Virus record (IMG/VR): IMGVR_UViG_3300023179_000184
Location: 1-44,470 of that record
Length of the DNA stretch: 44,470 bases
Strand: one strand, 5' to 3'
From: a virus
Lineage: Duplodnaviria; Caudoviricetes
Notes under the pieces: model-generated
Told to the model about the DNA's origin: nothing
The model's database searches: none
What the model saw: only the letters and a program-made list of their open reading frames with translations
Program-made: the position numbers and the translations under genes
Shown: positions 12,401-38,800 of the stretch, piece by piece
How the letters are laid out: each line of letters begins with the position of its first letter
Numbering within the stretch: the first letter of the stretch is position 1

Positions 12401-12440
12401 TAGCCCAATTAAACAAACTTATGTTGTCAGTGTGGCATAA
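9411..12440 (+). CDS. large virion structural protein with LamG/concanavalin-like beta domains
   Basis: YAEKILQEHPTSIYILDD N-terminus, TLEFWTKV...KLIVNGE pattern and ITTNRWYTLGIFF; Trp-spaced repeats near the C-terminus. Confidence 0.65.
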   Translation: MATISHSYAEKILQEHPTSIYILDDEVVHFNDINLNSFNSSFPSTTGKLIRCLNLAKDFGFITSSVNIEKVAPIVFGSDYSVFLSGSNSTITIPSKGIFTYNGRYNSNTLEFWTKVDKPYLGKRKIVGAYSTNDDGNGLYVNQTSFVLQIGEKSGTAYIKDFNRPFLIQIVNTANSSKLIVNGEDLISLSLSDTDLNTLTDTEFLSFGQGTYDCISTYTYQVDTVQALRRFGFGHGVSFPDNIVRNFNGKSVVIDYSKSKYAVNYNYTSGAGWKQSKTDNLVVENNYISNFQYEKPTLNSDTKTITDLENTISGTTFNLKSGTMSTAISNLQIEKLNMMTQQTKGFYIHGYYSNALPTSDEVLFKIVNKNNSNEYFSIVVNSSTISYRIKYQSSDEYEILSENSNNLVYNSPNFNFIIGIDIDAFATYCMTQNQQGRGTDVKNFFANQSDLIAYIGGDSNLTISKTCSANIYSVKFLTDENLSKRSSLVSASGTFTYPVDISNVLTTSASLANSIVGSYEVKPYQDYLNLASVGYRLGVFSNGYWKNAIPLSQFCKVENDTVYPYNFIQFNIDYESSLLEKTISSKNYFDTNSYENSNVKTYITFEPVSNSYKEDSTFTTTLEPSSDRTVIPGVSWETTKYEIVDGFVIYPPTGIDIREYNLVIHIDFNVADTENNSITIQKMQLSSQAYNQNSIKTIGTKYGTELIPYTYNTSTSTYDYNGYNPFLISKRENPYTYMGRESGIRLVGFDTTVANTVRGIRIPINQTANISMMQLSIFYNAELDTSSSPFYAKFPNSSEKVFEIKAQNKTVEVVLTRTGNGNTATISASLNGVADNQVFYFINGKHDNVPTITTNRWYTLGIFFKEPLIFDPSGEFNLIGGISIDNLSYYQFKFAAGTWNDLTSLTWNSITPYTWNFIIDNSYWLNNLINWNTTWNSITPYTWSIINNSSSWENVLGPTSISSKNMYSMFTGTNRIIGETSLTNNLGLVAAEYKYLDSPIKQTYVVSVA

Positions 12441-15762: not shown

Positions 15763-15786
15763 ATTTACTAGGAGGTGAAAAATAAA

Positions 15787-16932
15787 ATGTCAGAAGAAAT
15801 TATCAAAAATATGCCTTCAGGTGCGTCTCCAGTTTCTGGATACCCTAACGCTGAAGGTGCTTTCGGTACATCAACTAGCGTATCGTCAGGTACAGGTGCT
15901 TTTTCAGAGCACGGTACTTACTTGGCTAACAGCCCAACCGCTAACTTTGGTGTAACAACTGGTGCTAATGGTGTAAACCCATCTGCTACTGCAAGTCCGA
16001 CTTACCCAGGTACTGGTATCCTACGCCCTGAACAGGCAAGACGATTCATCGACTATGTTTGGGACGCAACCACACTTGCACAGGACGGTCGCAGAGTAAC
16101 AATGAGAGCAAACACAATGGAACTTGAGAAGATTAACGTGGGAGACCGTGTTATTCGTGCTGCAAGCCAGGGTGTCTCAACTTACACTAACACTGGTGCT
16201 ACCTTCTCTAAGGTAGAACTAACAACCAAGAAGATTCGTCTAGACTGGGAAGTTTCCTCAGAGTCACTCGAAGATAACATCGAGGGTGCTGCTCTAGAAG
16301 ACCACCTAGTTCGTCTAATGACTAATGCTTTCGGTAACGACATTGAAGACCTAGCCATTAATGGTGACGGTTCAACTGGTTCGTTCCTAAGTATTATGAA
16401 CGGATTCATCAACTTGGAAAAGACCAACCCTAACGTTGGTTCTGGTTCTAACCTTGGAAGTGCACACGAAGTTGTAAATGCATCTGCAATTACAGATTGG
16501 ACAACAGACAAGTTGCAAGCACTTATCTTGGCTATGCCTCGTAGATATCGTGCTATCACTAACGGTCTAAAGTTCTATGCTGGTACAGACACATTTGCTA
16601 ACATCGTTAAGAACAATGGTACTGTCTACAACGTCATCGGTTCTACCGAAGGAAGTCGTGGAGAGTTCCTTGGTGGTGCAAACCAGACCTTCGGAGGTGC
16701 TCGTCAGACTCGTGTTCTAGGTGTGCCTGTTCTTGAAGTTCCTTACTACCCTGCAGGATTTGTTGACCTAACATTCCCACAGAACCGTATTTGGGGCTTC
16801 CAAAGAGACATCACTGTGAACCGTTTCTACGTTCCTAAGAAGGACACAATTGAATACACTGTATTCGTTCGTTTCGGCATCGCCTGGGAAGAACTTGATG
16901 CAGTTGCATTCCAAGACGCAACTACAGAATAA
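15787..16932 (+). CDS. major capsid protein (HK97 fold)
   Basis: GILRPEQARRFID, VELTTKKIRLDWEVS.E.LEDNIE, DIEDLAINGD and VLGVPVLEVP motifs; AGGAGGTG RBS supports ATG 15787; highly expressed-type codon usage; terminator follows. Confidence 0.92.
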   Translation: MSEEIIKNMPSGASPVSGYPNAEGAFGTSTSVSSGTGAFSEHGTYLANSPTANFGVTTGANGVNPSATASPTYPGTGILRPEQARRFIDYVWDATTLAQDGRRVTMRANTMELEKINVGDRVIRAASQGVSTYTNTGATFSKVELTTKKIRLDWEVSSESLEDNIEGAALEDHLVRLMTNAFGNDIEDLAINGDGSTGSFLSIMNGFINLEKTNPNVGSGSNLGSAHEVVNASAITDWTTDKLQALILAMPRRYRAITNGLKFYAGTDTFANIVKNNGTVYNVIGSTEGSRGEFLGGANQTFGGARQTRVLGVPVLEVPYYPAGFVDLTFPQNRIWGFQRDITVNRFYVPKKDTIEYTVFVRFGIAWEELDAVAFQDATTE

Positions 16933-22268: not shown

Positions 22269-25200
22269 ATGGCTGATATTGAATCCAACATAAAAGTAAA
22301 TATAGATACGTCAGATGCTCTGGCTCAACTTAAGTTACTTCAGCAACAGATATCAGCCTTTCAGCAAGCCATGCGAAATGCAGGGGCACAAAATGCCGCT
22401 GCTGCTGCTGCAATGCAGCAAAATCTTGTAACATCTATTAATGCTACTGGAAAATTCCAAGCAAATATAAAGACAATCAAAACAAGTGCAGAATCTTTTA
22501 CCGAAGCACTTGAAAAGAATAAGATGTCTATTGGCGAATACTTTCGCTATGCTGGTGGGGCATCTAAAACATTTGGTAAATTATTCAAATCAGAATTCGC
22601 TACAATACAACAAGTAGCAATTGAACGAGTAAAAGAAGTTCAGACTCAATACATTAAACTTGGTCGTGATGCTAGTGGAGCAATGAAGGCTATTTCTGTA
22701 AAGCCACTTGCTCTTGACATGAACAACCTTGCAACTAAAACACAAATTGCTGCTCAAAGACAACAGTTGTTTAACCAACTTATGAAGCAGGGTTCTACAC
22801 AACTTCTAAACTTTGGTAAGAATACACAGTGGGCTGGTCGCCAGTTGATGGTTGGTTTTACAATCCCACTTACAATGATGGGGTCTGCTGCTGCTAAAGC
22901 ATATATGCAAATTGAGGCAGCATCAGTTAAGTTTAAACGTGTCTATGGTGACATGAATACAACAACAACAGAAACCAATAAAATGGTTAAATCTGTTCAG
23001 GCTTTGGCTAATCAATTTACTCAATATGGTCTTGCAGTTGCAGAAACCATGGATATGGCTGCCCAGGCTGCTGCTATGGGTAAAACTGGTTCAGACCTTT
23101 TAGCACAAATCAACCAATCTGCAAAACTTGCAGTTCTTGGTGGTGTAGACCAACAGAAGGCACTGGAAACAACCATCAGCCTTACAAATGCATTTGGTGT
23201 TTCTGCACAAGACCTTGGCAAAAACATTGACTTCTTGAACGCAGTAGAAAACCAGACAACACTTAGCATTGAAGACCTCACAATCGCTATTCCAAAGGCT
23301 GCTCCAGTTGTTAAGCAACTTGGTGGAGATGTTAAAGACCTTGCATTCTTCCTAACAGCAATGAAGGAAGGTGGAATTAACGCATCTGAAGGTGCCAACG
23401 CCATTAAGTCTGGTCTTGCATCTTTAATTAATCCATCACAAAAAGCATCACAATTTTTACAAAGTTTTGGAATCAATGTTAAAGGAATTGTTGAAGCAGA
23501 TAAGGGTAATCTAAAGAAAACAGTCATTGATTTTGCCAAAGCCTTAGACACGCTTGACCCACTAAACCGTGCTCGTGCTATTGAGCAAATGTTTGGTAAG
23601 TTCCAGTTCTCTCGTATTTCTACATTGTTCCAGAATGTAATTGCAGAGGGTAGCCAAGCACAACAGGTAGCAGAACTATCAAAGAACTCAGCAGAAGAAC
23701 TTGCTATCCTATCAGAACGAGAAATGAAAAAGATTTCAGATTCTCCAATGTTTAAGTTCCAAAAATCTATTCAAGATATGCAAGCAAAACTTGCTCCTGT
23801 TGGTGAAGCATTCCTTAAGGCTATTACTCCAATAGTTGAATTTGTTGGCAAAATATTAGATGGTTTCAATAATCTTAGTTCTGGTGCAAAAAGTTTTATA
23901 ACTATTTTAGTAACTGCTGTAGCAGGTATTGGACCATTGCTACTTATGACATTCGGTTTGATTGCAAACGGTATTGCAAACATTATGAAATTGTTTACAA
24001 ATATCAAAGCATTTATAAATAAAACCACAAAGCCATCCGATATTATTGGTGAACAAACTAAGTATATGACAACAGAGCAATTAAATAGTGCTGCTATTGC
24101 AGACTCTTTAGACCAAGCACATGCCAAACTTAAACAAACTTTTACATCAGAAACAGAAGCATTAAGAAAACTAACTGAAGCATATCGTCAAGCAGTTCAA
24201 GCACAACAAGGATATGCTGGTATTCCTGGAGTTCCAGTTGGAAATCCAAATGCAACACCTCCAAAGAAATATGCAAATGGTGTATCTTATGTTCCTGGTC
24301 CAAGAGGTGCTGGAGACATTATTCCAGCCCTATTGTCTCCAGGTGAAGCAGTCATTCCTGCAAAACATGCACAAAAGTATGCTCCAGTAATTGCTGGTAT
24401 GGTTTCTGGAAATCTTCCAGGATTTGAAAGTGGAACTACTGGTGTTGGTATGCGTCAAAGCACTATTGGACCACTTACGGAAAAACAAACAGAAGGATTA
24501 TTAAGAACAGGAAAAACTCTTAAAGAGATTAGCGATGAAGTTTATGCTGGTCCATATGGTCAGATTCCACCAGAACAATATATTAGACAAATTGAGCCAA
24601 CCAAGGGTCATTCTTTCCCTGCTTTTGAGGTTGGCGGTATTTATGAAAAGGCTGATGGAACAAGAGTATTCGTTAAGCCACAAATAGATTTGACATCAGC
24701 ATTAGCAGAAGTTCGTGGAACTCAGATTGCAAGAGATGCCCATCAACTAGTAACACCTATGCAAAAAATTGTTACAATGATGGACCCAACAGACCCAGAA
24801 GGAAGAAGAAAATTCATTGCTCTTGAATCACCATTAAGTGAACAAATTGCAAATATTAAAACATCATTTACCAAAGATGAATATTTTAAACAACTTGTTG
24901 CATCGCTTCTTCGTGGAGATAAAGATTTAGGTATTGGTAATCTTGGCGGCAATGTTCTTGCTGACGTTGGTCCTGCTGGTGTATTCCAGAGGGCATCAGG
25001 AAAACGTCAACTTGGTGGCAGAATTAACTCAATGGAAGAACAAGCCATCATTAACTTACTTGGTGTAAAGGGTGGTGCCAAGAGATTCTTTGCAGAAGCA
25101 ACTTCTGAAATTGCTAGAGGTATGTCTCCAGATGCATATGATGCAGCAATGAAGGCTGAAATCGCTTCAGTTCTATCTAGATTCCCATCCGTTATAAATA

Positions 25201-28200
25201 GTTTTGGTTCTCTAACTCCAGAAGAAAAGGCTGCATATGCAGACATGGAGAACCGCCTAAAGCAAGGCTCAATGACTGACTGGCGTAAATATCAAGGAAT
25301 TCATTCTGCAGTAACCCCTAAAAAATATAAAGATGGTGGAATTGTAGGATATCTTAAAGGTAGTAAAGGAATTAAAAAAGAATCAGACTATACTCCACAA
25401 GAGATTTATGAATTATTAAAAATTCAAGAAGCACACGCTTATGGTGAAATGGATATCAAAGATAAAAATGTTCAAGAACAACTTAAACGAGTATTTTCTG
25501 AATCAAGTCCAGAAGACTTTAATAAATTTAAAATTCTTAGCAATCTTACTATGAGTTTGCCAGGTAAATTAAATCAATTAATTAAAGAAACTGGCAATGG
25601 TGTACAGGGACCAATTTTTAGTCAGGCATATAATGCTTTGCGTGGAAAACTAAGCAAAACTGCAAAAATGTCTGGTGTCAAAAATATGTCAGATGCTCAA
25701 ACTCTTGAAGATATTATTGGAACAAAATTTGTAGGAGAGCCATTAATCAAAGATTCAATATTTGCAAAAATAGTTGAATCAACCATTAATGAACAAACTG
25801 CAAATGTTTCTCAAATTGGCTCTGCAGCAAACTTAATTTGGGAAAGAACAAAACAAGTTGGAACTGTTCGTCCTAAACGTGATAATTTAGACACACAAAA
25901 ATGGAATGAATTAATTACAACAATGCTACAAAATGATGAGTTAGTTGTAGTTCCAGGAAATGAAAATGGTTTTCCAGTTGCACAAACACCATTTGGTGGA
26001 CGTTTTGGAAGAATCATGTCGGATGGCATTGGCTCAAGCAAAACTGCTGAAGGTCGTGCTATTCGTAAATTGGCACAAGATGCAGCAAACCAATGGGCTA
26101 AATCTGGAAATCATAAGTTGCCACTGCCACTAGTTGACCTTGGCAATGGAAATGTTGTTCAGTTAAAATGGAGAGACAATAGTGCAAAACCAGGAACATT
26201 CTCATCCGATGAATTTCCTGCTTATGATGATAAAAGTAAAAAATATGCATCAGACCTATCTTTTGCACCTGGTGGATTAAATGTTCTTAAAAATCTTGGA
26301 TATTTTGCTAAAGGTGGAATAATTCCTGGAGGACAAGATGAAAAATATAAATACCTAGAAAAAGACAGAGGTTTTTATAAAACTGCATTAGCCTATGCTG
26401 CTATGGAAAAAGCATATAGGGATAAGAAACCAAATGCTGCACAACTAAAGGGTGCCTACACCAACCTAAGAGCCAAATATGGAATTATGGATAGTGAGAT
26501 AGTAGATGAATACTATTGGGACGAACCAGAACAAATTGAGGCAAGAGTTGCAGCAGAATGGGCAAAAGCCTACCCTGGATTGAAACTTGCTAAGGGTGGA
26601 ACTATACCAGGATATGCTAAAGGAAGTTTCGACATTCCTGGTATGGGACAAAAGAAATCAGCATATTCTGATGCAAAACTAAAACACAATATCCTTCTTA
26701 AACTTGTAGAGTTAAAGAAACAAGGATTGCCAGATGATGCAGTAATTCAATCAATCAGGTCTAATCCAGAATTTGCTAATGCACTAGCAGAATATGAAAA
26801 GTTTGGTCAAAGACCAAGGCTAAATGTTACAAGTTTAAATACAGCAATGCGTTTAAAGAGTGACAAGGCTCTCGACAACGCTGTTGGTAGAAGTGCAGAA
26901 TATCTTGAACAACAGTCATTTGGATATAAAGCAAAAAAGATAGCAAAGGCTACTCCAGGAAAAATTGGTGAAGTTGCACAAGGTTTAGCGTATGCTGGTA
27001 TTGCAGGAATCGCAGGATTAGGCAGTATGGCTGTAACAAATCCACTAGGATTCAGGGCTGCTACTAGTGGTTTAGGAGAACTTGCAAAAGTAGTTTTGGC
27101 AATGTTTGGACTTCATCTAAATAAGGGTGGTGTTATTCCAGGGTATGAAGAAGGTACTCCAGAAGTTCTTCCACAAGGATTTTCTGCTATGCCAACACAA
27201 GCAGAAAAAGATGCACAAGTTGCATTTGTTCAGAATTCTCCATTAGCCCAACTACAACGTGGTGACGCATTAGCAAGTTTGGTTGCCAAGTCTACAATTG
27301 GTAAGGGAAACCAAATGTTCCGTGTTCCTACCATTAGACAAAATGAAGAACTAGCCACAAAAAAGGTTGGGGACATAGTTGATATTGGTAATAGGTTTAC
27401 ATCTATTGCAGACCAAACGCAACTGCAAGCAATAGGAATGACTGCTGCAGGAAAACTAAATACAGGAAATAGAGAACGTGCTGTAAACACTATCCTGAAA
27501 CTTGTTGCTGGCTACGATATGCCAGGAATTATGAATCACAACTCATACAATCCTGATTATAAAAAACAAGCATTTGGAGAAAAGGGTGGTGCAGAATATC
27601 CATTCCAGTCAGAGGGAGTTCTTCCTCCAGGACTTAAAGGCAAGATTACTAATATTGCTCAAAGTGGAGACCAAAAAATAATTGAAGTCTTAATTCAAAA
27701 ACTTGCTAAGGGTGGAATAATTCCAGGGTATGCTAATGGTGGTTTTATTGCAACACAAAAGCCAAAGGCATCAGTATTTGATATTGATGATACCCTTCTT
27801 GACCTATCTTCTTTTATGCCAGCACACGAAGCAAAAAACGAAAAACTTCCTAAAGACCAAAGAACAAAATGGCACGAAGAGGCTGCAAAGAATCCTAAAG
27901 GTATTCCTGCAGCAATTGAAAGACTAAGGGCTGCACAGGCTCGTGGTAATAAGATTCTTCTTATGACTGCTAGACCACAGTCATATGACATGGTTACAAT
28001 GGATACCCTACAAAAACTGGGTATTGATACTAACAATGTAAAACTAATTTCTAGAGCAAGCAAAGATTATCGTAAACCAGAACAGATGAAGTTTGATAAA
28101 ACTTCTAAGTATATGCAATGGTATGACATTGAAGAATTTTACGATGACCTTGCAGAGACTCGTGCTGCTATCAATCAATTAGGTATTAATGCAATTGACC

Positions 28201-31200
28201 CACTTGCCCTTGCTAAGGGTGGAATTATTCCTGGAAAAATTGGTCCACTTCATAAAGATTATGTTCCACCAATTACCGCAAAAGTTGGAACACCATTTTA
28301 TGCTATAGAAACAGATTATGAAGGTGTAAACGATAGTGATGGTTTATTTACTTCTAAGGAAGCAGCAGATGCATATATTGCTCGTATGGCTAAAGAGTAT
28401 TATGGCAACAATAAAGAAATGCAAAAACTTCATTTTGACAGAACTCATGCTGTTCCTATGTATGGCAGCACAATGGGCGGACCTACTCAATGGGGCATTA
28501 ATGTTGATTATGAAGGTGTTGCTCCAGATTGGGGAACATTCCCTAATAAAAAAGCCGCTAATAATTTTATAGCAAAATATGTCGAACAGTTTAATGACCC
28601 AGAAGCAAGAAAACGATATGCCAGCACTATGCATCCTGTTCCAATGAAGATTAATAAATCGGAATTGATGAAGAAACTTGCTAAGGGTGGAATAATTCCA
28701 GGATATGCTAAGGGTGGAATTATAGGTTCCATTTGGAATAGTCTATCTAACATTGGAACACAAGATGGAGAGTTCTCAGATAGACAACTTGGTGGTATGG
28801 TTAAATACGTAGCAGTAGACGGTGCTTTTCCAAAAAACTTTAAACAATGGGAACCAAATGATGAGTTTTCTGCTGCATTTAGAAAATATAGAGAAATTAA
28901 ACATTTAGAATATTCTATTCCAGCAATGGAAAAGTTTGTATCAATGTATAAACCTGGAATGAAAAAAGAACAATTAATGATTGATATGTATGATTCCGAA
29001 GGTGGTAAAAGATTATTTAGAAGAGGTAATCCAGAACTTTCAGGATTAGTAAGTAAGTCTAAAGAACAACAGTTAGCAAGAATAGAACAGGTTAAACAAC
29101 AAGTTGCACAGTTCTATCAAAGTAAAGAATATGCAATGTTACAGGGTGCAAAAGGTAAAAATGCTAGTGCTTGGTTGATGCAACAACTAAGGCGTATGGG
29201 TAAATCCAATGTTTACTCTGCAATAGAAATGAAAGATAGATTTGCAGATAAAAAAGAAAATATTATTATTGGTGCCGAAGTAAGTGCACATGAACAAAAA
29301 ATTGAAAATGCAATTGATGAAGGTCTTAGCCCTGGAGAAATTGCATTACTAAAACAAGAAGCATTAAGACATAGAACAACTTCAAGATTAAAGGTTGGGG
29401 CTCTAAAGCATCCAAAAGATGCAGGAAGTAAAAATGGAAGATATTTTGGTCCAGGCATGTACTTTGCAGAAGACCAACTAGATTCTAAAAAACTATTTTC
29501 TGATTTTGGAAACAATGTTTATAAACTAGACCTATCAGATGAAGAAAAAGAATTTGTAAGAAATAGTAAAGGCTATATTGATGAAGCAACAATGATTCAA
29601 AAAGCAAAAGAATATAAACATCTTTTGCGTGATAGAGGAATTAATGATGCTTGGTTTGGCGATAAAACTATTCGTGGAGTATTTGGTGCTAAATGGACAG
29701 ACCCATTTATTCAAAAACTTATGGAAGAGGGATACATTGGTTATCAACATGGAAAGGCTTTTACTGATTGGTATGTTGGTTCTAGACCTGGCTATGGTTT
29801 AAAGAAAACTAAATATGCTAATGGTGGAATTATTCCAGGATATGCCAAGGGCACTAGTAAAGTAGATGAGTTTGCAGGATACGATGAATATCTTGGAACT
29901 CCAGAATACTATAACTGCCCTCACGGTTTTGTTTTTGGAGAAGGATGCCCTGCATGTAGAAAAATATCTAATGATTCGATGTATAAGCAAGGATACAAAA
30001 AATGTACTGCACAAACTAAAACTGGTCAACGCTGTAAAAACTTTGCAGAAGCAAATGAACAATTATGTAGTTTCCATAAGAAAAATGGTGCAGAAGCAAA
30101 GTATATCCAAAGAGGAACACAAAGACCAGTTCAAAGTTGGATAGAATCATTAAAACTTGCAGATGGTGGATACGTTGACCCATATGACGATTTACCAAGT
30201 GATTATTTTGACTGTCCTCATGGATACCTATATGGTGAAGGATGTCCTACCTGTAAGAAAGCAAGAAATAACGAATGGTATGCACAAGGATATAAAAAAT
30301 GTACTGCTCAAACAAAGAATGGTAAGCGTTGTCAAAACTGGGCAAACCCTAATGAGCAATTATGTAATTTCCATAAAAAGAATGGTGCAGAACCTGTTTA
30401 TAAACAATTAGGTATAGCGAGAGAAATAGAAAAGCCTTATAAGTTTGCAAATGGTGTATTCTCAGTTCCAGGACCAAAGGGTGCTGGCGATGTAGTTCCT
30501 GCAATGCTATCTCCAGGTGAGGCTGTTATTCCTGCTGATAGTGCCGCCAGACATCGTGGACTAATTACTAAAATGATTGCTGGTGATTTGCCAGGGTATG
30601 CCAATGGTGGAATTATTCCAGGGTATGCATTTGGAACACCAGAAGTTCCTGGTCAAAATTTTGGATTCCCAGGTTTTGGAGAAAGACCACTCAAGGTTAT
30701 TATTATTGGCGATGAAACAAAGATTAATGACGATACATCAAAGGTTCAAAAAGAGGTTGCAAAAGAACAAAAGGCTGCTGCAAAAGACCAGAAAGATGCT
30801 GCAAAAGAATCAAAGAAATCAGACAAAGATATTCGTGACGCAATTATAAAAGACAAACAAGAAGCACGAAAAATGCAACAGGAAGCAATTGCTGAACAAA
30901 GAAAAATAACTGCAAACCAAGAAAGAGTCAAGGCTAACTATGACCAGATGACTGATAAAGAAAAGGCTAAATTTGATGAGAAGTTAAACAAGAAATATGA
31001 AAAAGAAGATAAAGACCTTCAGAAACAATATGACAAAGAAGATAAAGGTCCTTCAAAATTCTCTAAACTATTCAAAGCAAATAAGTTTACTGCTAAAGCA
31101 ACAGGCATTGGCTATATGGCTTCTGGTGTTGTTGGATTAGCAACTCAAATACCTGGCGGAATTGGTCAGGCAGCCCAAGCCGCTTTGCCAGCCATTGGTG

Positions 31201-34200
31201 CAATGACTTCAGCAATGTCGATGATTCCTGGACCTGCTGGTATGGTTGTTGGTGGTTTGATGGCGGTAGCAACAATTGCAGGACAAATAGAAGCACACTT
31301 TAAAGCACTTAGAGAAGAATCTGCTAAAAACGTAAGAGCACTTGGTGCATCAACACAAGCCATGAGTAAGTTGTCAGAATTTGCTAAAAAGGTTGGTTCT
31401 AGAGAACTTATGGATAAGAGACGTGAAACATCAGCAAGCAGTTTCTTCTACATCAGACCAGGCAAAAAAACATTTGGTGAATCCTATATGGAATCAGAGG
31501 CTGGAAAAGAATTAACTCAAGAAACAAGTAGTTCACTAAAGTCTAAAAACCCACAGGTAACTTCAAAATTAATTTTGTCACAAATGGGAACAGCAATTAC
31601 CGAAGGAATTCTGTCACCTGAACAAGCACGAAGTATTGTTTCTAACTTGGCAAAACAATTAAAGAATACTCAATTTGGTATAGATGTTAATGCAAAAATA
31701 ACAGCAATGTATGGACCAGATGGAACTCCACTAGACTATTCAAAGAATTCTATTAAACTTGCCATGGATGCAGTTCTTGCTGTAGCAAGTGAAACTGGTG
31801 TAGAGGGTGCTACAAAAGCAGCGGCATTAGCAGAATCAACCGTTGCTGCAATGAATTCTATTCAGGCTGCAACAGATGCTTTGGCTGCAAATCCAAAAGC
31901 AACTAAGGAAGAAAAAGATGCACTAACACAATATGCTCAACAAACAATGACACAACTATATGACCAAACAGTAAAGGGACAGTCGGAACTGGGAAACCAG
32001 TTTGCAGATTCAGCAAGAGAATCTTTGACTAAGGCATACGAAGGAACTGGTTTTGAAGATGTTGCTAAATCTACAGGAGAAGCAATTCAAAACTTTGATG
32101 CTTATAGTCATGCACAAGAAACTTTCTTTACTCAAGTGCTCGCATCAAAAGTTATAGGTACAACACAAATGCAAACCGCTATGAACCTAAATATAAGTGG
32201 TGATGTCTTAACAGAACTAATCAAAACAAATCCAACTGCACTCAACCAATTGCTTGGTGTTGCAGGAAGTATGGACAAAGAAACTGGTGCAGCACTTATA
32301 AGTAATCAGGCTGGACAAACATCAGAACAAATGGCATCAACTGCCAGTGCACTAGAACTAACAGGAAAAACTACTGGAGTTTTTGCAATGGATGAAACCA
32401 GCAAAAAGGCAATTCAAAAATACTATGCAAATGAAGGATTGGACAAAGCAAAAGAAATAGATAGAATATATAAAGAATTAGATAACAAAAAAACAACAAT
32501 AACAGTCGATACGGTTACTAGTGTTGCTGGAGATAACTTAGAATTGAAAGAAGCCATGAAAAATGGAAAAGTATCTAGTTACTTCAACAAACTTAAAGAC
32601 AAAAAGAACAAAATTATTTTTACAACTGAATTCAACTCATTACTTAGTGCAGATGAAACATTGGCACCAGCAATTAGGTTGTGGGCATCTGCCGCTGGTA
32701 AAAATACAAATATGACAGATGTAGACCTTGTTGCAACATATAAAGTAGAATACGCATTCTCTGAAGCACAAAGAGTTACAGACACAGGTGCTTTACAAGA
32801 TTTAACATTTAATCCAGACGATGCGTCAAATGGCACACCAGAAGCATCGATTCTTGATAAATATGTAAAGATGCTTAGAGAAGGTTCTAACTATGCTCAA
32901 AAACTTACAACTGGTTGGACAGCATCATATAATGCATTATCCAAATATGGAACTAAAGCAATTGACCAGATGGCTGGTATTGCATCATTGATGAAACAAT
33001 ATGGTGGAGATACTGGAATTATTAATGATTTCTTGGGTGGTACCGAAGAAGAACAAAACAGAATTATTGACAAGAGCACAGGTAAATTAAGGGCTGGTGC
33101 TGGAGAACTTATTGCTAAACTTAAACAAATTAAAGATATGCAAGAATATGGTTTATCATATGTTCTTGCTTCACCAGCAGAAAGATTACAAAAAGATAAC
33201 GAACTTTATCAGGCTGGATTAGATGTAATCGGTGCAAAAGAAAAGAAAATTAATGATAAATACGATAAACGTATCAAGGCACTTGATGAAATTGGTAAGA
33301 TTCAAGAAAAGAATAACCAGTTACAAAAAGATACCCTAACACTTGCTGATGCATTGTCTAAGGGTGACATAGCAGCAGCCGCTAGAGCAGCAATGCAAAC
33401 ACAACAAGATAGTCAAAAACAAGCACTTGAAGATGCTAAAGCAAATATTGAAAATGCTAGAAAAGCAGAACTAGAAGCAATTACAGTTAAAATACTTGGA
33501 CATACTCAACATCGTTCCGACCTAGAACAAATGATTTCTGACAATTCGCAAAAAATTGCGGAATATAAATTGAAAGAAATGAACCGTCAAACTCAGATTG
33601 GAAAAGATGCTCTTATTGCTGCCAAGGCTAGTGCAGAACAATTAAAAAATGGTAAAGCATTGGCTAGTTTGTCAAAAGGAACTGGAGGAGGTTCTGGTAA
33701 TGGAAATAAAGGAAACCCAACTGGACAACCTTCTGCTACTCAAGACGCTAAGGGAAACCCTATTGGAACCAGATACGACTCTCAGGGACAAATAGATGTA
33801 AATGGAAAATACAATGACCAAGGTAAATTAATTAAGCCAGCAGCAACTGCTGCAGAAATTAAAAAATTACAAACAGGTGCATCTGTTGCTGGACTTACTG
33901 CTGCTAAAGAAAATGCACAAAATAAATTGAATACTAAAAGAACGAGTGTACAAAATAAATTTGGTTTAAATTATAGTGACTTATATTTGGCAGTTAAAAG
34001 CAAAGATATGCAATCAGTTTATGGAAAAGTTAAAAAAGACCAACGAGCAGAATTTGCTAAAGAGTTTTCTAATCTTACATCATTACAAGATGTTGTAGAT
34101 ACTTATAATGACTTGTCTGGAAATGGAGATATTTTAAATAGTGCTGCAGGAAAAGAAGCATCACAACAACTATTAGATGCTTTGCCAGAAAATGACATAA

Positions 34201-35213
34201 AGGCTATTACTCTTGTAAAAGAAAGAGTCTCATCATATGCTACAGAACTAATAGATTATTTAGCAAAACAAAAAGCGTATAAAGACGCTGCAAATAAATT
34301 AAATGTTGGAAATGTTGCATGGGAAGACATGACACCAGAAAACAAAGAAAAACTTGAAACATTGCATACAGCCTATATTGAAAAAAATAAATTTATGTTT
34401 CAAAAACATAAAGATACCAATGCCGCAGTAGATACAGTAACAAAACTTTCTAATAATGGATTAGACCTTAATTCAGTGGGAATAGGAAGAGGTTATTTAT
34501 ATAAAAACGATATAACAAATAAAGAAGTAAGAAATTGGCAAACTTTTGCATCTGGTGGTTTAGTATTACCAAAACCATATGCTGGTGGTGGCATAGTTAT
34601 TCCAAAGGGATTTAGCAATGGAGGTAAGGCTACTAAAGACAAAAAAACTAAAGATAAAAATAAGGGTACTCAAACAACAGATTTAACAACTGAAACAGGA
34701 GAAAAGATTTCCAAACCACAGGACGCTGGCAAATTAGTTAAATCTGTAACAAATAAAACTAAAAGTAAAGGTAACCACATAACTAATTTGGGTGGTCCTC
34801 GAACCAGTTCAGGTATTGCACGTTCACCTGGCGGTGGAATGGGTATGATTGGCGGAATCCTTGAAATGATGCATCAAATATTTGCAGATGGTGGTGTGGT
34901 TGTTCCAAAGGGATATGCTATTGGTGGCGGTATTTATGGAACTGATACTGTACCTGCTATGCTTACTCCAGGAGAATTTGTAATAAGAAAATCAGCAGTA
35001 GATGCTATTGGTGTGGAAAATCTACAAAAACTTAATGGATATGCCAATGGCGGCTTGGTTGGTGGAACTTCAAGCACAACAGCAAGTGATTCAGTGTATA
35101 ATTATAGTATAACAGTGAACGCCAATTCTTCAGATGCAAATGATATTGCAAATGCAGTATTGAACCAAATTAAGAGAATTGATTCACAAAGACTTAGGAG
35201 CAATGTTATTTAA
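22269..35213 (+). CDS. giant tape measure protein (TP901-type core) carrying an internal array of effector-like domains
   Basis: N-terminal TMP core (GRQLMVGFTIPL, AAMGKTG, LNAVENQT, EGGINASEGANAIKSGL), TM segments near 23890-24000 and 31090-31290, C-terminal GTDTVPAMLTPGEFVIRKSAV and YNYSITVNA; synteny. Confidence 0.92.
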   Translation: MADIESNIKVNIDTSDALAQLKLLQQQISAFQQAMRNAGAQNAAAAAAMQQNLVTSINATGKFQANIKTIKTSAESFTEALEKNKMSIGEYFRYAGGASKTFGKLFKSEFATIQQVAIERVKEVQTQYIKLGRDASGAMKAISVKPLALDMNNLATKTQIAAQRQQLFNQLMKQGSTQLLNFGKNTQWAGRQLMVGFTIPLTMMGSAAAKAYMQIEAASVKFKRVYGDMNTTTTETNKMVKSVQALANQFTQYGLAVAETMDMAAQAAAMGKTGSDLLAQINQSAKLAVLGGVDQQKALETTISLTNAFGVSAQDLGKNIDFLNAVENQTTLSIEDLTIAIPKAAPVVKQLGGDVKDLAFFLTAMKEGGINASEGANAIKSGLASLINPSQKASQFLQSFGINVKGIVEADKGNLKKTVIDFAKALDTLDPLNRARAIEQMFGKFQFSRISTLFQNVIAEGSQAQQVAELSKNSAEELAILSEREMKKISDSPMFKFQKSIQDMQAKLAPVGEAFLKAITPIVEFVGKILDGFNNLSSGAKSFITILVTAVAGIGPLLLMTFGLIANGIANIMKLFTNIKAFINKTTKPSDIIGEQTKYMTTEQLNSAAIADSLDQAHAKLKQTFTSETEALRKLTEAYRQAVQAQQGYAGIPGVPVGNPNATPPKKYANGVSYVPGPRGAGDIIPALLSPGEAVIPAKHAQKYAPVIAGMVSGNLPGFESGTTGVGMRQSTIGPLTEKQTEGLLRTGKTLKEISDEVYAGPYGQIPPEQYIRQIEPTKGHSFPAFEVGGIYEKADGTRVFVKPQIDLTSALAEVRGTQIARDAHQLVTPMQKIVTMMDPTDPEGRRKFIALESPLSEQIANIKTSFTKDEYFKQLVASLLRGDKDLGIGNLGGNVLADVGPAGVFQRASGKRQLGGRINSMEEQAIINLLGVKGGAKRFFAEATSEIARGMSPDAYDAAMKAEIASVLSRFPSVINSFGSLTPEEKAAYADMENRLKQGSMTDWRKYQGIHSAVTPKKYKDGGIVGYLKGSKGIKKESDYTPQEIYELLKIQEAHAYGEMDIKDKNVQEQLKRVFSESSPEDFNKFKILSNLTMSLPGKLNQLIKETGNGVQGPIFSQAYNALRGKLSKTAKMSGVKNMSDAQTLEDIIGTKFVGEPLIKDSIFAKIVESTINEQTANVSQIGSAANLIWERTKQVGTVRPKRDNLDTQKWNELITTMLQNDELVVVPGNENGFPVAQTPFGGRFGRIMSDGIGSSKTAEGRAIRKLAQDAANQWAKSGNHKLPLPLVDLGNGNVVQLKWRDNSAKPGTFSSDEFPAYDDKSKKYASDLSFAPGGLNVLKNLGYFAKGGIIPGGQDEKYKYLEKDRGFYKTALAYAAMEKAYRDKKPNAAQLKGAYTNLRAKYGIMDSEIVDEYYWDEPEQIEARVAAEWAKAYPGLKLAKGGTIPGYAKGSFDIPGMGQKKSAYSDAKLKHNILLKLVELKKQGLPDDAVIQSIRSNPEFANALAEYEKFGQRPRLNVTSLNTAMRLKSDKALDNAVGRSAEYLEQQSFGYKAKKIAKATPGKIGEVAQGLAYAGIAGIAGLGSMAVTNPLGFRAATSGLGELAKVVLAMFGLHLNKGGVIPGYEEGTPEVLPQGFSAMPTQAEKDAQVAFVQNSPLAQLQRGDALASLVAKSTIGKGNQMFRVPTIRQNEELATKKVGDIVDIGNRFTSIADQTQLQAIGMTAAGKLNTGNRERAVNTILKLVAGYDMPGIMNHNSYNPDYKKQAFGEKGGAEYPFQSEGVLPPGLKGKITNIAQSGDQKIIEVLIQKLAKGGIIPGYANGGFIATQKPKASVFDIDDTLLDLSSFMPAHEAKNEKLPKDQRTKWHEEAAKNPKGIPAAIERLRAAQARGNKILLMTARPQSYDMVTMDTLQKLGIDTNNVKLISRASKDYRKPEQMKFDKTSKYMQWYDIEEFYDDLAETRAAINQLGINAIDPLALAKGGIIPGKIGPLHKDYVPPITAKVGTPFYAIETDYEGVNDSDGLFTSKEAADAYIARMAKEYYGNNKEMQKLHFDRTHAVPMYGSTMGGPTQWGINVDYEGVAPDWGTFPNKKAANNFIAKYVEQFNDPEARKRYASTMHPVPMKINKSELMKKLAKGGIIPGYAKGGIIGSIWNSLSNIGTQDGEFSDRQLGGMVKYVAVDGAFPKNFKQWEPNDEFSAAFRKYREIKHLEYSIPAMEKFVSMYKPGMKKEQLMIDMYDSEGGKRLFRRGNPELSGLVSKSKEQQLARIEQVKQQVAQFYQSKEYAMLQGAKGKNASAWLMQQLRRMGKSNVYSAIEMKDRFADKKENIIIGAEVSAHEQKIENAIDEGLSPGEIALLKQEALRHRTTSRLKVGALKHPKDAGSKNGRYFGPGMYFAEDQLDSKKLFSDFGNNVYKLDLSDEEKEFVRNSKGYIDEATMIQKAKEYKHLLRDRGINDAWFGDKTIRGVFGAKWTDPFIQKLMEEGYIGYQHGKAFTDWYVGSRPGYGLKKTKYANGGIIPGYAKGTSKVDEFAGYDEYLGTPEYYNCPHGFVFGEGCPACRKISNDSMYKQGYKKCTAQTKTGQRCKNFAEANEQLCSFHKKNGAEAKYIQRGTQRPVQSWIESLKLADGGYVDPYDDLPSDYFDCPHGYLYGEGCPTCKKARNNEWYAQGYKKCTAQTKNGKRCQNWANPNEQLCNFHKKNGAEPVYKQLGIAREIEKPYKFANGVFSVPGPKGAGDVVPAMLSPGEAVIPADSAARHRGLITKMIAGDLPGYANGGIIPGYAFGTPEVPGQNFGFPGFGERPLKVIIIGDETKINDDTSKVQKEVAKEQKAAAKDQKDAAKESKKSDKDIRDAIIKDKQEARKMQQEAIAEQRKITANQERVKANYDQMTDKEKAKFDEKLNKKYEKEDKDLQKQYDKEDKGPSKFSKLFKANKFTAKATGIGYMASGVVGLATQIPGGIGQAAQAALPAIGAMTSAMSMIPGPAGMVVGGLMAVATIAGQIEAHFKALREESAKNVRALGASTQAMSKLSEFAKKVGSRELMDKRRETSASSFFYIRPGKKTFGESYMESEAGKELTQETSSSLKSKNPQVTSKLILSQMGTAITEGILSPEQARSIVSNLAKQLKNTQFGIDVNAKITAMYGPDGTPLDYSKNSIKLAMDAVLAVASETGVEGATKAAALAESTVAAMNSIQAATDALAANPKATKEEKDALTQYAQQTMTQLYDQTVKGQSELGNQFADSARESLTKAYEGTGFEDVAKSTGEAIQNFDAYSHAQETFFTQVLASKVIGTTQMQTAMNLNISGDVLTELIKTNPTALNQLLGVAGSMDKETGAALISNQAGQTSEQMASTASALELTGKTTGVFAMDETSKKAIQKYYANEGLDKAKEIDRIYKELDNKKTTITVDTVTSVAGDNLELKEAMKNGKVSSYFNKLKDKKNKIIFTTEFNSLLSADETLAPAIRLWASAAGKNTNMTDVDLVATYKVEYAFSEAQRVTDTGALQDLTFNPDDASNGTPEASILDKYVKMLREGSNYAQKLTTGWTASYNALSKYGTKAIDQMAGIASLMKQYGGDTGIINDFLGGTEEEQNRIIDKSTGKLRAGAGELIAKLKQIKDMQEYGLSYVLASPAERLQKDNELYQAGLDVIGAKEKKINDKYDKRIKALDEIGKIQEKNNQLQKDTLTLADALSKGDIAAAARAAMQTQQDSQKQALEDAKANIENARKAELEAITVKILGHTQHRSDLEQMISDNSQKIAEYKLKEMNRQTQIGKDALIAAKASAEQLKNGKALASLSKGTGGGSGNGNKGNPTGQPSATQDAKGNPIGTRYDSQGQIDVNGKYNDQGKLIKPAATAAEIKKLQTGASVAGLTAAKENAQNKLNTKRTSVQNKFGLNYSDLYLAVKSKDMQSVYGKVKKDQRAEFAKEFSNLTSLQDVVDTYNDLSGNGDILNSAAGKEASQQLLDALPENDIKAITLVKERVSSYATELIDYLAKQKAYKDAANKLNVGNVAWEDMTPENKEKLETLHTAYIEKNKFMFQKHKDTNAAVDTVTKLSNNGLDLNSVGIGRGYLYKNDITNKEVRNWQTFASGGLVLPKPYAGGGIVIPKGFSNGGKATKDKKTKDKNKGTQTTDLTTETGEKISKPQDAGKLVKSVTNKTKSKGNHITNLGGPRTSSGIARSPGGGMGMIGGILEMMHQIFADGGVVVPKGYAIGGGIYGTDTVPAMLTPGEFVIRKSAVDAIGVENLQKLNGYANGGLVGGTSSTTASDSVYNYSITVNANSSDANDIANAVLNQIKRIDSQRLRSNVI
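24270..30640 (+). repeat. dispersed in-frame direct repeats encoding [LFY]AxGG(IIPGYAxG) linkers
   Basis: Copies start at 25326, 26304, 26586, 27117, 27702, 28209, 28677, 29814, 30156 and 30597, with YANG/FANG variants at 24270 and 30444. 27699-27727 and 28674-28702 are identical over 29 nt (AAACTTGCTAAGGGTGGAATAATTCCAGG). Confidence 0.9.
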
Positions 35214-35818
35214 TGGCTGATTCAGTTTATTTAGGCGGTAGAACAAAATATGCTAGACCACAGGCTATGCTATGGTCAGATGCTCCACCAGAAATATCTA
35301 ATGGTTTATACGTTCCAGCAGGATTTGAGGTTAATGCTGCAACTGCTGGTAGTGATTTTTTAATTCTTTCAGACCACGGTAGAAAAGACATTTCATTCAA
35401 ACCAGAACGTATTGAAAAACGTGAACGTATGATTAATGGTCGTATGCGTTCATACCACATTGCTGACAAACTAACTATTTCTACATCTTGGGATATGTTG
35501 CCATCTAGGGCATTTCGAGATGACCCAAATTTTGATGTATCAACTGGTTTATCAACAATAAAACCTTTTACAGTTGATGGTGGTGCTGGAGGAAATGAAT
35601 TGCTTGATTGGTATCAAAATCACACAGGTTCTTTCTATGTATTTTTAGCATATGACAAAAAATCTAATTTTGCAGAATCTGGTCAGTATGGACATCTAGC
35701 AGAATATAATGAAGTCATTGAAATGTTTATTTCTAGTTTTGACTGGAATGTAGTAAAACGTGGCGGTATTAATAATTATGATTTTTGGAATGTATCCGTT
35801 ACGCTGGAAGAGGTATAA
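35213..35818 (+). CDS. distal tail (Dit-like) protein, putative
   Basis: Directly after TMP (TAATG); RERMINGRMR, ISTSWDMLP and WNVSVTLEEV resemble siphovirus distal tail proteins. Confidence 0.65.
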   Translation: MADSVYLGGRTKYARPQAMLWSDAPPEISNGLYVPAGFEVNAATAGSDFLILSDHGRKDISFKPERIEKRERMINGRMRSYHIADKLTISTSWDMLPSRAFRDDPNFDVSTGLSTIKPFTVDGGAGGNELLDWYQNHTGSFYVFLAYDKKSNFAESGQYGHLAEYNEVIEMFISSFDWNVVKRGGINNYDFWNVSVTLEEV

Positions 35819-38800
35819 TGTATCAGAATACTTCGCTAAAAAATTATATTGAACAGTCATCATCAATTAATTTACAATCATTAATCTTAGCAGAATGGAA
35901 TCTGAATTACTCAGATAATATTCTGTTGCTTGGCAACTATAGAAATAGACCAAATATTGCTAGTCCATCACAATCTAACTATGGTATCATTGCACCATCA
36001 TATGACGATACAGATGCATTAGGTGCATACACAAATGCAACAGATTCAAAAGTTCTTATTTATAATGGTTTAAACTCATCTAATAATACCCCAAACATTT
36101 TTGTTAAACAAAGTGAAACAGAAAAAATTCTATATTCTTTAGTTGATTGTGTTGGTAGATTTAGACCACGTTCTGGAATTAACAAACTTCGTTATCAAAA
36201 AGGGGACCAATATTTAAATTTTCCAAACGAAAATATGTATCTACAACCAAGATATTATCTTTCTTCTAAAGATGACAAGTTCAAATATTGGAGTTCATAT
36301 CGTGTAGATGGAACAACTGATGCAATTCAAAGGGGTATTTCAACAACCTTAAAATCAACTGGAGAATACTATATAGATGATGCAGCACCATTTGTTGTCT
36401 ATGACAAACCAGTTCCAGCAAACAGAATAGTTATAAAAATGCAAACACATGCGAGTGACTATAGTTTAGGAACATATAAAATTTCTAATAACACATCATT
36501 GTCAGACCCATTTTATGAAAGTGCAACAAATACAGGTGCATTGATAAATCAAAGAACACCAGAAGATTGGAAGATTCAATATCTAGATAATAATAATACT
36601 TGGCAAGATGCTAAAGTATTTACAAGTTCTTCTTTGCGTTCTACAGGAAAAAGAATCATTGGCTCTGACGGATATGTGGAACTTGCTTTTGGACTTACAA
36701 ATACTTTGCCAACTGGATTTAGAGATTTGGGACAATATCCTTCTCAAGCATCATTGCCAATAAGTTCAAATATTGGTGATGCATATTTAGTGCCAGACCC
36801 AACTAATACTACTGCTGGAACATACTATGTTTGGAATGGAACCAACTGGACAACCAATTCATTTGTTCCAGTTTATGGCTGGTATGTAAAAGAAGAAGAA
36901 GAGACTCTTCAATCATTTAATGTAACCAAACTAACTTCCCCAGATTTTTACGGAACTCCAGCAAATGTATATACAGCAAACTACAGAGAGTTTCAGTTTG
37001 TTAAAGGATTGAGAATTGTTGTTAATACTATGAGCAAACAAAACTCATCTTTTGAACTAATTGAAATGTCTCCAAGACTTGCTGCCAATATTTCAGATAG
37101 GGTAAAGTCTTATTCTGTAACAAAAATTGCATCTGATATTGGAAATACAGGTATTCCAGTTGGACAACTTTCGGCATCAAATGGTGAACTTTCAATATTT
37201 GATTATGACCAATCACTTAATCCATATAATGATTTAACTCTTAATGCTGGATTAATTACAGGAAGTTTAATTTCAGATATATCATCAAAAAATTTACAAA
37301 TTAAATTTTATGAACAAATTATAGATGATAGAACAGCAACAGTTGTTGATTACTTTGTTCCTATAAAAACATACTATTCTGATGGATTTCCATCTATCTC
37401 TAGTGAAGATAGAAATGCAACAATTAGTTTACGAGATTTATATTTTTATTTTGAGTCAATGATTGCACCAAGTTTGCTAATGCAAAATGTAAAACTAAGT
37501 AAAGCAATTGCAACAATACTAGACAATATTGGATACTCAAATTATAAATTTTACAAAACAAGCACAGAATCAGAAGACATTATTCCATATTTTTATGTAG
37601 CACCAGAAACAAATGTAGCAGAAGTTTTAAATAATTTAGCACAATCAACCCAGTCAGCAATGTTCTTTGACGAGTACAATAATTTTATAGTTATGTCAAA
37701 GGACTATATAATGCCATCCGAAAGTGAAAGACCAACAAACATTGAACTATATGGAACAAAAGATTTTAATGATACAGGAGTTTTCAAAAATGCTGCTACT
37801 CAATCAATACTAGCAAATATTATGAAAATATCTTCAGAAAATAACGATGTGTTTAACGATGGCAAAATTATTTATTCCAATAAGTATATTCAAAAATCTT
37901 ATGGAACAATTAAAGAAGCATCTCTTCTAAATAATAATCAGGCATATAAATATAAGCCAGTGCTACTTTGGGAGGTATCTGGAACAGAAACATTAAGACC
38001 AACAAATGAAGAACTTAGTACACAATCAAGTTATGTGTTGGCAGCAATGCCACTTGACGCTACATTATCGGATACAGAACCTAGTGTAAGTTCTGGTGCA
38101 ATAATTAACGACATTATTGATTTTGGTAGGTCAATCTATTGGTTGACAAGATATGAAGGTTACTTCTATTCAAATGGTGAAATTATAAAGTATAAAGGTG
38201 TTGAGCATACCATTCAAACTTCTAGAATAACTGGATTTCAAGCAACACTTGCAACAGGAACGAATGCCATCACTTTGACAAGTGGAAATATTTTTAAACT
38301 ATCAATAGGTCAAAAACTCGTTGAAAGTGGTTCCAATCCTGGTCAATTTGGTGCAGCACCAATTATTACTTCTATAGATACAAAAAACAATAGTTTTACA
38401 ATAACTAATAATCATTCAAGTGCTGGCTTTATTTCATTTTATGTCGAAGAACAAACAAGTAATGTTTGGATACAGAATGTAAATGACTATCAAAAATATT
38501 TTTCACAAGTTGGATTTAATGGCAAAATATTTCCAACTGGTCGTGTAAAGATATATACAGAACCAAAAGTTGATTCTAATGGAAATATTACTGGTATAGC
38601 AAAACATGGTCGTGGTCAATTTGGAACAACAGTAACCAATCATGCAATTCTAGATTCTTCAAATCATTGGCTTCAAGATGAAAACAAGAAATCATTTGAG
38701 ATGCAGTCTTCTTGGATGTTTAAAGATAGTCATCAATACGACCAAGTAAAGTATGTCATCACAGGATGCACAACATCGAATAGTCCAACTGCAACCGTAA

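Follow-up and report, generated by a model that had tools for sequence, protein, structure and literature searches.

The window analyzed here, a 44,470-nucleotide stretch of DNA (positions 1 to 44,470 of IMG/VR record IMGVR_UViG_3300023179_000184), is a 44.5-kb fragment (42% complete by CheckV) from an uncultured siphophage of fresh water (lake), and it contains a tape measure protein (TMP) gene whose product carries ten modules of 89-365 amino acids (aa) between two copies of a 55-residue block, the modules being punctuated by a recurrent linker motif. This architecture is real and well supported. The function that we infer for it is that of a variable cargo array, which on infection would be ejected along with the TMP and likely be cut at the linkers into separate host-modifying enzymes, a reading to which we assign a probability of roughly 0.45. 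Taken step by step, the array is probably carried in the virion and delivered and, given delivery, cutting at the motif is about even, very slightly favored. The array is best read as a polymorphic, polyvalent-protein-like cargo store in the tail, previously known TMP enzymes being single domains.

The TMP is encoded between genes of tail-chaperone size and the tail hub gene, as expected. Its N terminus is of the TP901 type, with matches above cut-off to PF10145 (E = 3e-25) and TIGR01760 (E = 1.5e-32) and a match to phrog_10030 (E = 1e-102). No MuF domain (MuF toxins have immunity genes) was found in the whole TMP or its parts by domain searches. In residue numbering, a scaffold (aa 1-667) is followed by block A (668-723), modules M1-M10 (724-2725), block B (2726-2790), further scaffold and a C-terminal motif cluster with block C (4093-4262). 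In the window, the array lies between two hydrophobic zones. Of 14 relatives checked, 13 share this arrangement, the contig of the other (L085) being cut before the second zone. In the TMP of Streptomyces phage Mildred21, the hydrophobic zones are ~170 aa apart with no block between them. The parts of the gene are as follows.

22269..35213, plus strand: TMP gene, a single open reading frame (ORF) of 4314 aa
22269..24269, plus strand: conserved N-terminal TMP scaffold, aa 1-667 (PF10145, TIGR01760), 82-94% identical in the closest relatives
23886-23999, plus strand: first hydrophobic zone, aa 540-577 (hydropathy)
24270..24437, plus strand: block A, which opens the array; 58% identity to block B, profile matches to the Douge, JBD30 and lambda TMPs
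30444..30638, plus strand: block B with closing double linker (30597), which closes the array (motif search, block comparison)
30639..34544, plus strand: C-terminal TMP scaffold, 33-67% identical to relatives
31221-31283, plus strand: second hydrophobic zone, near aa 2985-3005 (hydropathy)
34545..35054, plus strand: C-terminal motif cluster and block C, aligning with lambda gpH 708-798 (E = 0.024)

The linker consists of either one [FYL]AxGG motif or two of them connected by IIPG, and the block consists of a motif, ~45 residues with an invariant Asp and Gly-Glu, and a second motif. The pattern [LFY]AxGG[IVY][IV] occurred 10 times in the TMP, against a mean of 0.0055 (maximum of 1) in 2000 shuffles, and [LFY]AxGGIIPG occurred 6 times, against 0 in the shuffles. 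The ten linker copies listed in a preliminary description of this DNA all proved to lie in frame with the motif and to stand far above the shuffled expectation; the wording given there, [LFY]AxGG, fits eight of them, but the copy at 25326 reads YKDGG and that at 27117 LNKGG. Apart from the copy within block B, the linkers found by motif search are the following.

25326..25340, plus strand: linker, YKDGG variant
26304..26318, plus strand: linker FAKGG(IIPG)
26586..26627, plus strand: double linker LAKGG-TIPG-YAKGS
27117..27158, plus strand: double linker, LNKGG variant
27702..27743, plus strand: double linker, site of a whole-module insertion in relative P0002 (also by comparison)
28209..28223, plus strand: linker LAKGG(IIPG)
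28677..28718, plus strand: double linker LAKGG-IIPG-YAKGG
29814..29855, plus strand: double linker YANGG-IIPG-YAKGT
30156..30170, plus strand: linker LADGG

About ten modules, each ending at a linker, had been proposed. Ten are present, but the copy at 30597 closes block B and not a cargo module; M1 starts after FESGT at 24423 and M10 ends at 30444 (FANGV), the other limits falling at linkers. Nor is the punctuation confined to the array, six further [LFY]AxGG-like copies and the third block being found at aa 4093-4262.

Relatives were fetched from IMG/VR (80 loci by the N terminus, 5 by M5, 2 by M8 and 80 by the M1 profile), yielding 164 TMPs of at least 700 aa, or 127 after removal of contained duplicates, the window counted. 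The set is biased to M1 carriers and some of its rows are cut by contig ends; L- and P-numbers are labels of relatives. In the set collected by the N terminus only, M1 was present in 15 of 81 TMPs, M2 in 5, M6 in 2, M5 in 1 and the other modules in none. In the full set of 127, the counts were 71 for M1, 20 for M2, 16 for M6, 6 each for M5 and M8, 3 each for M3 and M4, and 1 each for M7, M9 and M10, and block A was present in 112. The expectation that relatives keep the flanks while varying in the number, identity and order of modules was borne out. TMPs with 82-94% identical N termini differ in module order: the window has M1-M10, L004 and L083 have M1, M2, M6, M5 (M6-M5 against the window's M5-M6), L088 has M1, M2, M6, M8 and then a second M8C-type domain, L085 has M1, M2-like, M6, M3, X, block, X, M5, M8 with X tandem-duplicated across the block, L090 has M1, M2, Y, M4, and L092 has M1, M2 and another kinase-like module. 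The sister rows L090 and L092, separated by branches of ~0.01 in an N-terminal tree of 21 hand-picked rows, thus carry different cargo. In P0002, the M5 and M6 parts are 98 and 100% identical to those of the window, and an extra module of ~345 aa stands at the M5/M6 linker with a linker copy on either side. An unassigned ~200-aa module is duplicated together with the block in L085 (aa 1755-2211) and triplicated with the block in L104 (aa 1640-2620), copies that on sequence comparison are read as recent unequal recombination inside the array. The C-terminal motif cluster (34545-35054) looks empty in the window, and the same site holds cargo in relatives: M5 in L086, where it has moved next to the C-terminal block, and in P0001, and several modules in L009, L010, L013 and L015.

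Module ends in the relatives coincide with linkers, as had been predicted. Projected C-terminal ends lay no more than 12 aa from a linker in 14 of 15 cases for M6 (1.3 expected by chance), 5 of 5 for M5 (0.5), 5 of 6 for M8 (0.5), 2 of 2 for M4 (0.2) and 8 of 17 for M2 (1.4); M4, M5, M6 and M8 together gave 26 of 28, and M3 gave 0 of 1. Modular shuffling at the linker is almost certain. The number of linker-bounded segments rises with TMP length (Spearman 0.49), and the window has the most among 91 complete TMPs. In the TMPs of L003 (10001-10324), L007 (9142-14488) and L148, the frame is broken by a stop or a frameshift, through either an error of assembly or a genuine split.

The cargo modules of the window, all on the plus strand, are as follows.

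24438..25325, plus strand: M1, predicted atypical kinase of CotH/MavQ/PI4KII/CtkA/HipA-like fold (model and invariant residues)
25341..26303, plus strand: M2, fast-diverging module, usually after M1, in 20/127 non-redundant TMPs including the window
26319..26585, plus strand: M3, 89-aa module with homologues between linkers in L085 and L119
26628..27116, plus strand: M4, ending Gly/Ala-rich, with homologues between linkers in L090 and L104; ratio of nonsynonymous to synonymous substitution rates (dN/dS) of 0.34-0.38
27159..27701, plus strand: M5, candidate R-S-E ADP-ribosyltransferase (ART) with R1685, S1712 and Q1780-x-E1782 and look-alikes in the ESM Atlas
27744..28208, plus strand: M6, assigned as a HAD-family phosphatase (PF03767, E = 9.6e-18, 65 bits against a cut-off of 27; phrog_415, E = 7.8e-18)
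28224..28676, plus strand: M7, with a two-fold internal repeat (0/2000 shuffles), in the window only among the collected TMPs
28719..29813, plus strand: M8, a helical N-terminal part and a C-terminal ART-PolyVal-like domain (M8C, ~29331-29813)
29856..30155, plus strand: M9, putative two-site Zn-binding module (CPHG..CxxC; C-x9-C-x11-CxxH)
30171..30443, plus strand: M10, M9 paralogue (59% identity by module comparison)

A model of M1 built from 18 homologues had a mean pLDDT (predicted local distance difference test) of 87.6. Its VIA Z scores were 11.7 with CotH (root-mean-square deviation of 3.8, 209 residues aligned), 10.8 with MavQ, 10.2 with PI4KII, 9.7 with CtkA and 9.3 with HipA; the best Foldseek E value was 3.8e-3, and every listed row contains a kinase. 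Residues K803, E814, D884, D886, N891 and D899 are invariant in 18 of 18 aligned homologues, and these we take, from general kinase knowledge, to include the Lys, the Glu, the catalytic-loop Asp and Asn and the metal-binding Asp. M1 is thus predicted from the model to have a bilobed kinase fold with a full C-lobe, in agreement with the kinase-like cargo claimed earlier; protein, lipid and small-molecule substrates are not distinguishable from the model. M6 carries all four HAD motifs (D1838-x-D1840, T1900, K1941 and D1959-D1960), and these, with its match to PF03767, make it a HAD-family phosphatase, as named in the preliminary description. With the model of M1 and the HAD assignment of M6, at least two modules are predicted to be globular enzyme folds, and the concern that the segments might be mere helical ruler is not upheld.

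The two ART-like modules proposed earlier retain their motifs and Atlas look-alikes but lack hidden Markov model (HMM) or structural support. In M5, the R, S and QxE elements stand in ART order and are invariant in 5 of 5 close homologues, which is weak evidence because the rows are 75-90% identical; its Atlas look-alikes with PF03496 or ModB, at 0.86-0.89 and so under 0.9, serve as a lead only. HMM searches with M5 gave no match, PF03496 included, and 0 PF03496 matches were present on the window's record. Stand-alone M5 homologues of 99-317 aa were absent from 3747 candidates in a word-limited search. In M8C, the candidate residues are H2381, GPGxY2398F and GYxGY; its Atlas look-alikes score 0.90-0.92, with 190 shared features at 0.92, and PF18760 occurs on 22 and 54% of the members of the two matched clusters. 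The Tyr is invariant in 8 of 8 copies, the His is missing in at least two homologues, and the third residue is D or N, its placement being uncertain. M8 occurs as 8 copies in 7 TMPs, with an N-terminal part that is helical in a low-confidence model. There was no PF18760 HMM match to M8C and 0 PF18760 matches on the window's record. As neither module has an HMM match and their joint model is of low confidence, M5 and M8C are retained as ART candidates, and their activity is predicted from sequence features with less strength than the kinase fold of M1.

The two Zn-finger modules claimed earlier are seen as two Cys/His clusters in each of M9 and M10, but these patterns, including the zf-primase and HGG_STG matches of M9, are under the Pfam and NCBIfam cut-offs. 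These two paralogues, and the internal repeat of M7, also mean that the modules are not all unrelated, as had been stated. M2 had no match in Pfam, PHROG or NCBIfam. Sequence searches of the PDB with M1, M5 and M8C gave nothing significant, and tblastn against cultured phages gave no match for M1 and M5 and four weak matches for M8C, none informative. The cargo is under purifying selection, dN/dS being 0.08-0.38 in 15 of 15 module pairs tested and 0.07-0.13 in the N-terminal scaffold. Linker-bounded cargo of relatives includes OmpA (E = 8.5e-17), GNAT (PF00583, 6e-4, just under cut-off) and CHAP-like (0.043) domains and, by motif reading, further kinases, HEXXH peptidases, ART-like domains and a HIGH-type nucleotidyltransferase.

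That the array might be an assembly artefact from collapsed repeats was also considered. Contig breaks do lie close to linkers (27724-27758 and 28704-28733), and past the 42-nt double linker the bridges at 27702 and 28677 extend by just 15 letters. Against this, in four runs from three studies (X5-X8), none of them flagged as a potential source, contigs gave depth in 30 of 30 bins with no joint inside 24270-30640, all listed linkers were bridged by a contig among the 32 of 188 pieces listed, the 4314 codons form one open frame, and equivalent arrays occur in many independent contigs. Mis-assembly of the region, the doubt raised at the outset, is accordingly extremely improbable. One contig of run X5, at 26305, has a different sequence that stops right at the 26304 linker; it may come from a strain with another M2 variant or from another phage's TMP.

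The preliminary description had overlooked two properties of the linker: motif and block belong to TMPs in general, and the DNA of the linker has the marks of a recombination arm. As to the former, a block profile searched against the PDB matched the Douge TMP twice (E = 1.7e-32), the JBD30 TMP (1.1e-7) and, weakly, lambda gpH 732-785 (0.098), T5 pb2 not being among the matches. Block B matched 81 cultured phage records, and among the 40 listed all are annotated as TMPs. The motif density was 1.91 per 1000 aa in TMPs against 0.20 in other ORFs of the same loci, as scored with a matrix trained on TMPs. On this sequence evidence, the linker motif and the 55-residue block appear to be general TMP elements, not special to this phage. 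In PDB entry 8zdo (chain S, the Douge TMP, residues 963-1473), two blocks, at 963 and 1411, fence ~385 aa in the TMP of a cultured mycobacteriophage. In the TMP of Mildred21 (L081, aa ~1900-2104), one motif (LAVGG at 2022) directly follows an M23-like peptidase stretch, M23 being our reading of an HxH motif; beyond it come the C-terminal anchor and, before that, a degenerate block.

Cleavage finds its main support in the alignment of the block with gpH beside the lambda cut zone, which makes the motif a candidate TMP maturation site. Lambda gpH loses a C-terminal peptide of ~14 kDa from a glycine-rich region, the position and mode of the cut being stated as unknown (PMC12617516), and cleavage of the T5 TMP parts an enzyme domain from the rest (10.1101/2022.09.20.507954). 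We tentatively extend this to the proposal that [FYL]AxGG with the 55-residue Asp/Glu block may be a general siphophage TMP maturation signal, including the lambda gpH cut, multiplied here into a polyprotein magazine of shuffled, injected takeover or counter-defense enzymes; this broader form is somewhat less probable than the reading for the window itself.

In the proposed working, the array would have arisen by duplication of an ancestral motif-block-motif TMP element between the hydrophobic zones, and unequal recombination between the 15-42-nt linker repeats would shuffle the modules. Kinases, ARTs and GNATs depend on co-substrates found in the cytoplasm, an argument that the modules act there. 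The chain may be stored extended in the tail, because enzyme domains in TMPs are measured into it: in the TM4 TMP, an enzyme motif counts toward tail length (PMC1796659). At the 0.159 nm per residue of the Douge TMP, a tail of ~685 nm would result (~360 nm if the array were absent), below the 875 nm that tails are known to reach (PMC13033339). Once the TMP is ejected, its hydrophobic zones would enter the membrane and the modules would regain their fold and become active, and the freed enzymes would modify the host before phage gene expression; in phage P23-45, a TMP-fused RNA polymerase transcribes pre-early genes (PMC10770324).

Several observations weigh against this reading. The DNA copies of the linker are more alike than codon usage calls for: of 27 copies, 24 have GCT for Ala, although GCA is the more frequent Ala codon of the gene, and 23 have GGT for the first Gly, with GGA never used. 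This uniformity, the clean insertions and the duplications at linkers mark the linker DNA as a recombination arm, and the punctuation could have arisen by recombination alone, no proteolysis being needed; the roles of recombination arm and maturation site are not mutually exclusive. Estimates of the lambda cut (691-730) precede the motif (FATGG, 733-737), and with E values of 0.024-0.098 the alignment to lambda is weak. Family searches identified no tail-associated protease among the window proteins. The prohead protease was considered as the cutter via a motif shared with the capsid N terminus and was rejected: YATGG occurs in a few capsid proteins, and the linker motif is not conserved there in 79 aligned rows. 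In Mildred21, the peptidase-like domain of the C-terminal region is followed, not preceded, by the single strong motif copy, and a cut there alone would leave the domain on the ruler. Passages of PMC11445458, PMC7824862 and 10.64898/2026.02.24.707460 contain no mapped cut at the motif, a word search of PMC5099701 gave no hits, and the JBD30 TMP site at 1066 is a prediction only. With regard to the cargo, an AlphaFold model of the natural M5-M8 stretch of L085 (12 rows) reached a pLDDT of only 42.9 and was not used for fold searches, and no function was assignable to M2, M3, M4, M7 and the helical front part of M8 from the searches run. M1 ends at a detected linker in 20 of 70 matches (15 of 20 at ≥65% identity). 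Finally, in 54 of the 91 complete TMPs no segment of 75-480 aa bounded by linkers was detected; the array is therefore a sub-clade option, of which the window is the extreme.

The main rival to the cut array is one in which the cargo is delivered and stays on the ejected TMP channel, the linker being an uncut flexible or structural joint and its DNA a recombination arm. The homogeneity of the linker DNA, the clean insertion and tandem duplications at linkers and the failure of window searches to find a protease all fit such tethering, and an array between two hydrophobic zones could loop into the cell while anchored. Tethering is also what the authors of the P23-45 study hypothesize for its virion RNA polymerase (vRNAP), which would stay pore-associated (PMC10770324) and so counts against release, and the N4 vRNAP is packaged unprocessed (PMC5512222). 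Against it stand the facts that the peptide motif, not the DNA, is common to Douge, JBD30 and lambda, that the motif adjoins the known lambda cleavage zone and that even 90-aa modules keep the motif at both ends. Less probable still is a reading in which trimming of the TMP at the motifs accompanies tail assembly and the excised modules are not delivered, acting late in the producing cell or being packaged elsewhere; the fusion would then serve for expression only. The lambda cut does follow tail assembly, with half of the gpHC copies perhaps lost (PMC12617516), internal-segment loss from TMPs is mentioned in PMC1796659, and a 685-nm tail is demanding. Yet few copies per virion would seem a poor way to express late enzymes, the embedded enzymes of TM4 are measured into the tail (PMC1796659), and tails up to 875 nm exist (PMC13033339).

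Very unlikely, in our assessment, is the view that the modules are tolerated hitch-hikers of little benefit, added by repeat-mediated recombination to a zone between the hydrophobic zones that accepts insertions. Rapid gain, loss and tandem duplication, and the majority of relatives without arrays (54 of 91), are compatible with it, but the dN/dS values of 0.08-0.38, the intact catalytic residues and the enrichment of relatives' cargo in conflict-type domains (kinase-like, ART-like, GNAT, HEXXH, CHAP-like, OmpA) speak against it. A Trojan horse, in which the ART-like modules are aimed at protist grazers of the infected host and not at the host, has been proposed for VIP2-family ARTs of freshwater phages, including some actinophages (10.1101/670067), and the R-S-E pattern of M5 and its PF03496-bearing look-alikes are in keeping with this idea. 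It is nonetheless highly improbable here: M5 lacks a PF03496 match and counts a phage ModB cluster among its look-alikes, no binding or translocation domain is seen, and bacterial RNA polymerase is modified by T4 Alt, an ART of the same clade (PMC5512222).

The array resembles the polyvalent proteins described in PMC5512222, which likewise hold many disparate domains per polypeptide, are predicted to enter with the DNA and are mosaic by recombination, and whose kinase, ART, GNAT, nucleotidyltransferase and zincin types recur in this TMP family. The window's TMP combines disparate activities (a predicted kinase fold, HAD, Cys/His modules and the ART-like leads), and of the catalogued polyvalent domains ART-PolyVal gave an Atlas feature score of 0.92 but no HMM match. 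It differs in that the carrier is a TMP, that the modules are fenced by one repeated motif, that no MPTase-type processing domain was detected in the window, and that the predicted M1 kinase is CotH/HipA-like with a full C-lobe, whereas the polyvalent kinase is truncated (PMC5512222). The terms "tape measure" and "linker" occur 0 times in the main text of that paper. Thermus phage P23-45 gp96 is also a giant TMP (5002 aa) with an enzyme that is active in the cytoplasm ahead of phage gene expression, but it has one N-terminal enzyme, hypothesized to be tethered, and no repeat-punctuated or variable array is reported in the text of PMC10770324. Lambda gpH (to gpH* and gpHC) and T5 pb2 (to pb2* and pb2C) are cut near the C terminus in assembly (PMC12617516; 10.1101/2022.09.20.507954), and the window block can be aligned to gpH 732-785, a segment within or next to the glycine-rich zone of the cut; these have one cut and no cargo array, and the lambda protease is given as unknown (PMC12617516).

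Enzyme domains embedded in the ruler are found in TM4 gp17 (Mt3; PMC1796659), Douge gp16 (PMC13033339) and the Mildred21 TMP, but those actinophage TMPs carry one or few cell-wall hydrolases, unlike the ten polymorphic modules here, of which the assignable ones have cytoplasmic-type chemistry. MuF polymorphic toxins (PMC5576092) and the TMP-related effectors Sle1/Tme of contractile injection systems (CIS; PMC13277306) share the plan of a conserved virion-loading part with exchangeable domains, but theirs is a single C-terminal domain on a head protein or in a bacterial CIS, not an internal array in a phage TMP. No description of a motif-punctuated, polymorphic TMP array was found in the open literature, subscription papers and supplements lying outside the search. 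If the reading is true, the tail ruler, usually annotated and then ignored, would be a hidden and rapidly evolving reservoir of enzymes for injection, and the freshwater phage clade concerned is a common one: the N-terminal TMP patterns match ~1500 stretches stored in IMG/VR, and ~30 cargo clusters were present in 126 TMPs. The modules would be candidates for anti-defense and host-takeover proteins acting before transcription, and the motif yields a precise hypothesis on where and how lambda gpH is cut, an old open point (PMC12617516).

The gene order of the window (portal, prohead protease, capsid, tail genes, TMP, minor tail) is that of Mildred21 (Stanwilliamsviridae), and the best cultured matches to the TMP N terminus are Mildred21 relatives, at ~29% identity. 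Because both point to the Mildred21 group, we infer an actinobacterial host. One match in a metagenome-assembled genome labeled Bifidobacterium was read as a binned phage contig, and no host was taken from it; nor were the protein names "Chitinophagia" and "Alphaproteobacteria" taken as host evidence. In the large tail protein downstream of the TMP (35785-40632), a YAMSG stretch conserved in many loci scores on the motif matrix in relatives; it is probably unrelated to the linker motif, the second glycine pattern being absent. The capsid protein (15775-16932) has a variable Gly/Ser/Thr/Asn-rich N-terminal stretch that is much shorter in L081, L116, L122, L148, L150 and L151. The last 1.9 kb (42534-44470) hold no complete ORF in the list and are probably a gene cut at the contig end, and a low-GC ORF of 1009 aa with no Pfam or PHROG match precedes the portal (9411-12440). 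Upstream of the structural module, a GT2 glycosyltransferase (2792-3838) and a class II (B12-type) ribonucleotide reductase (7309-9348) are encoded.

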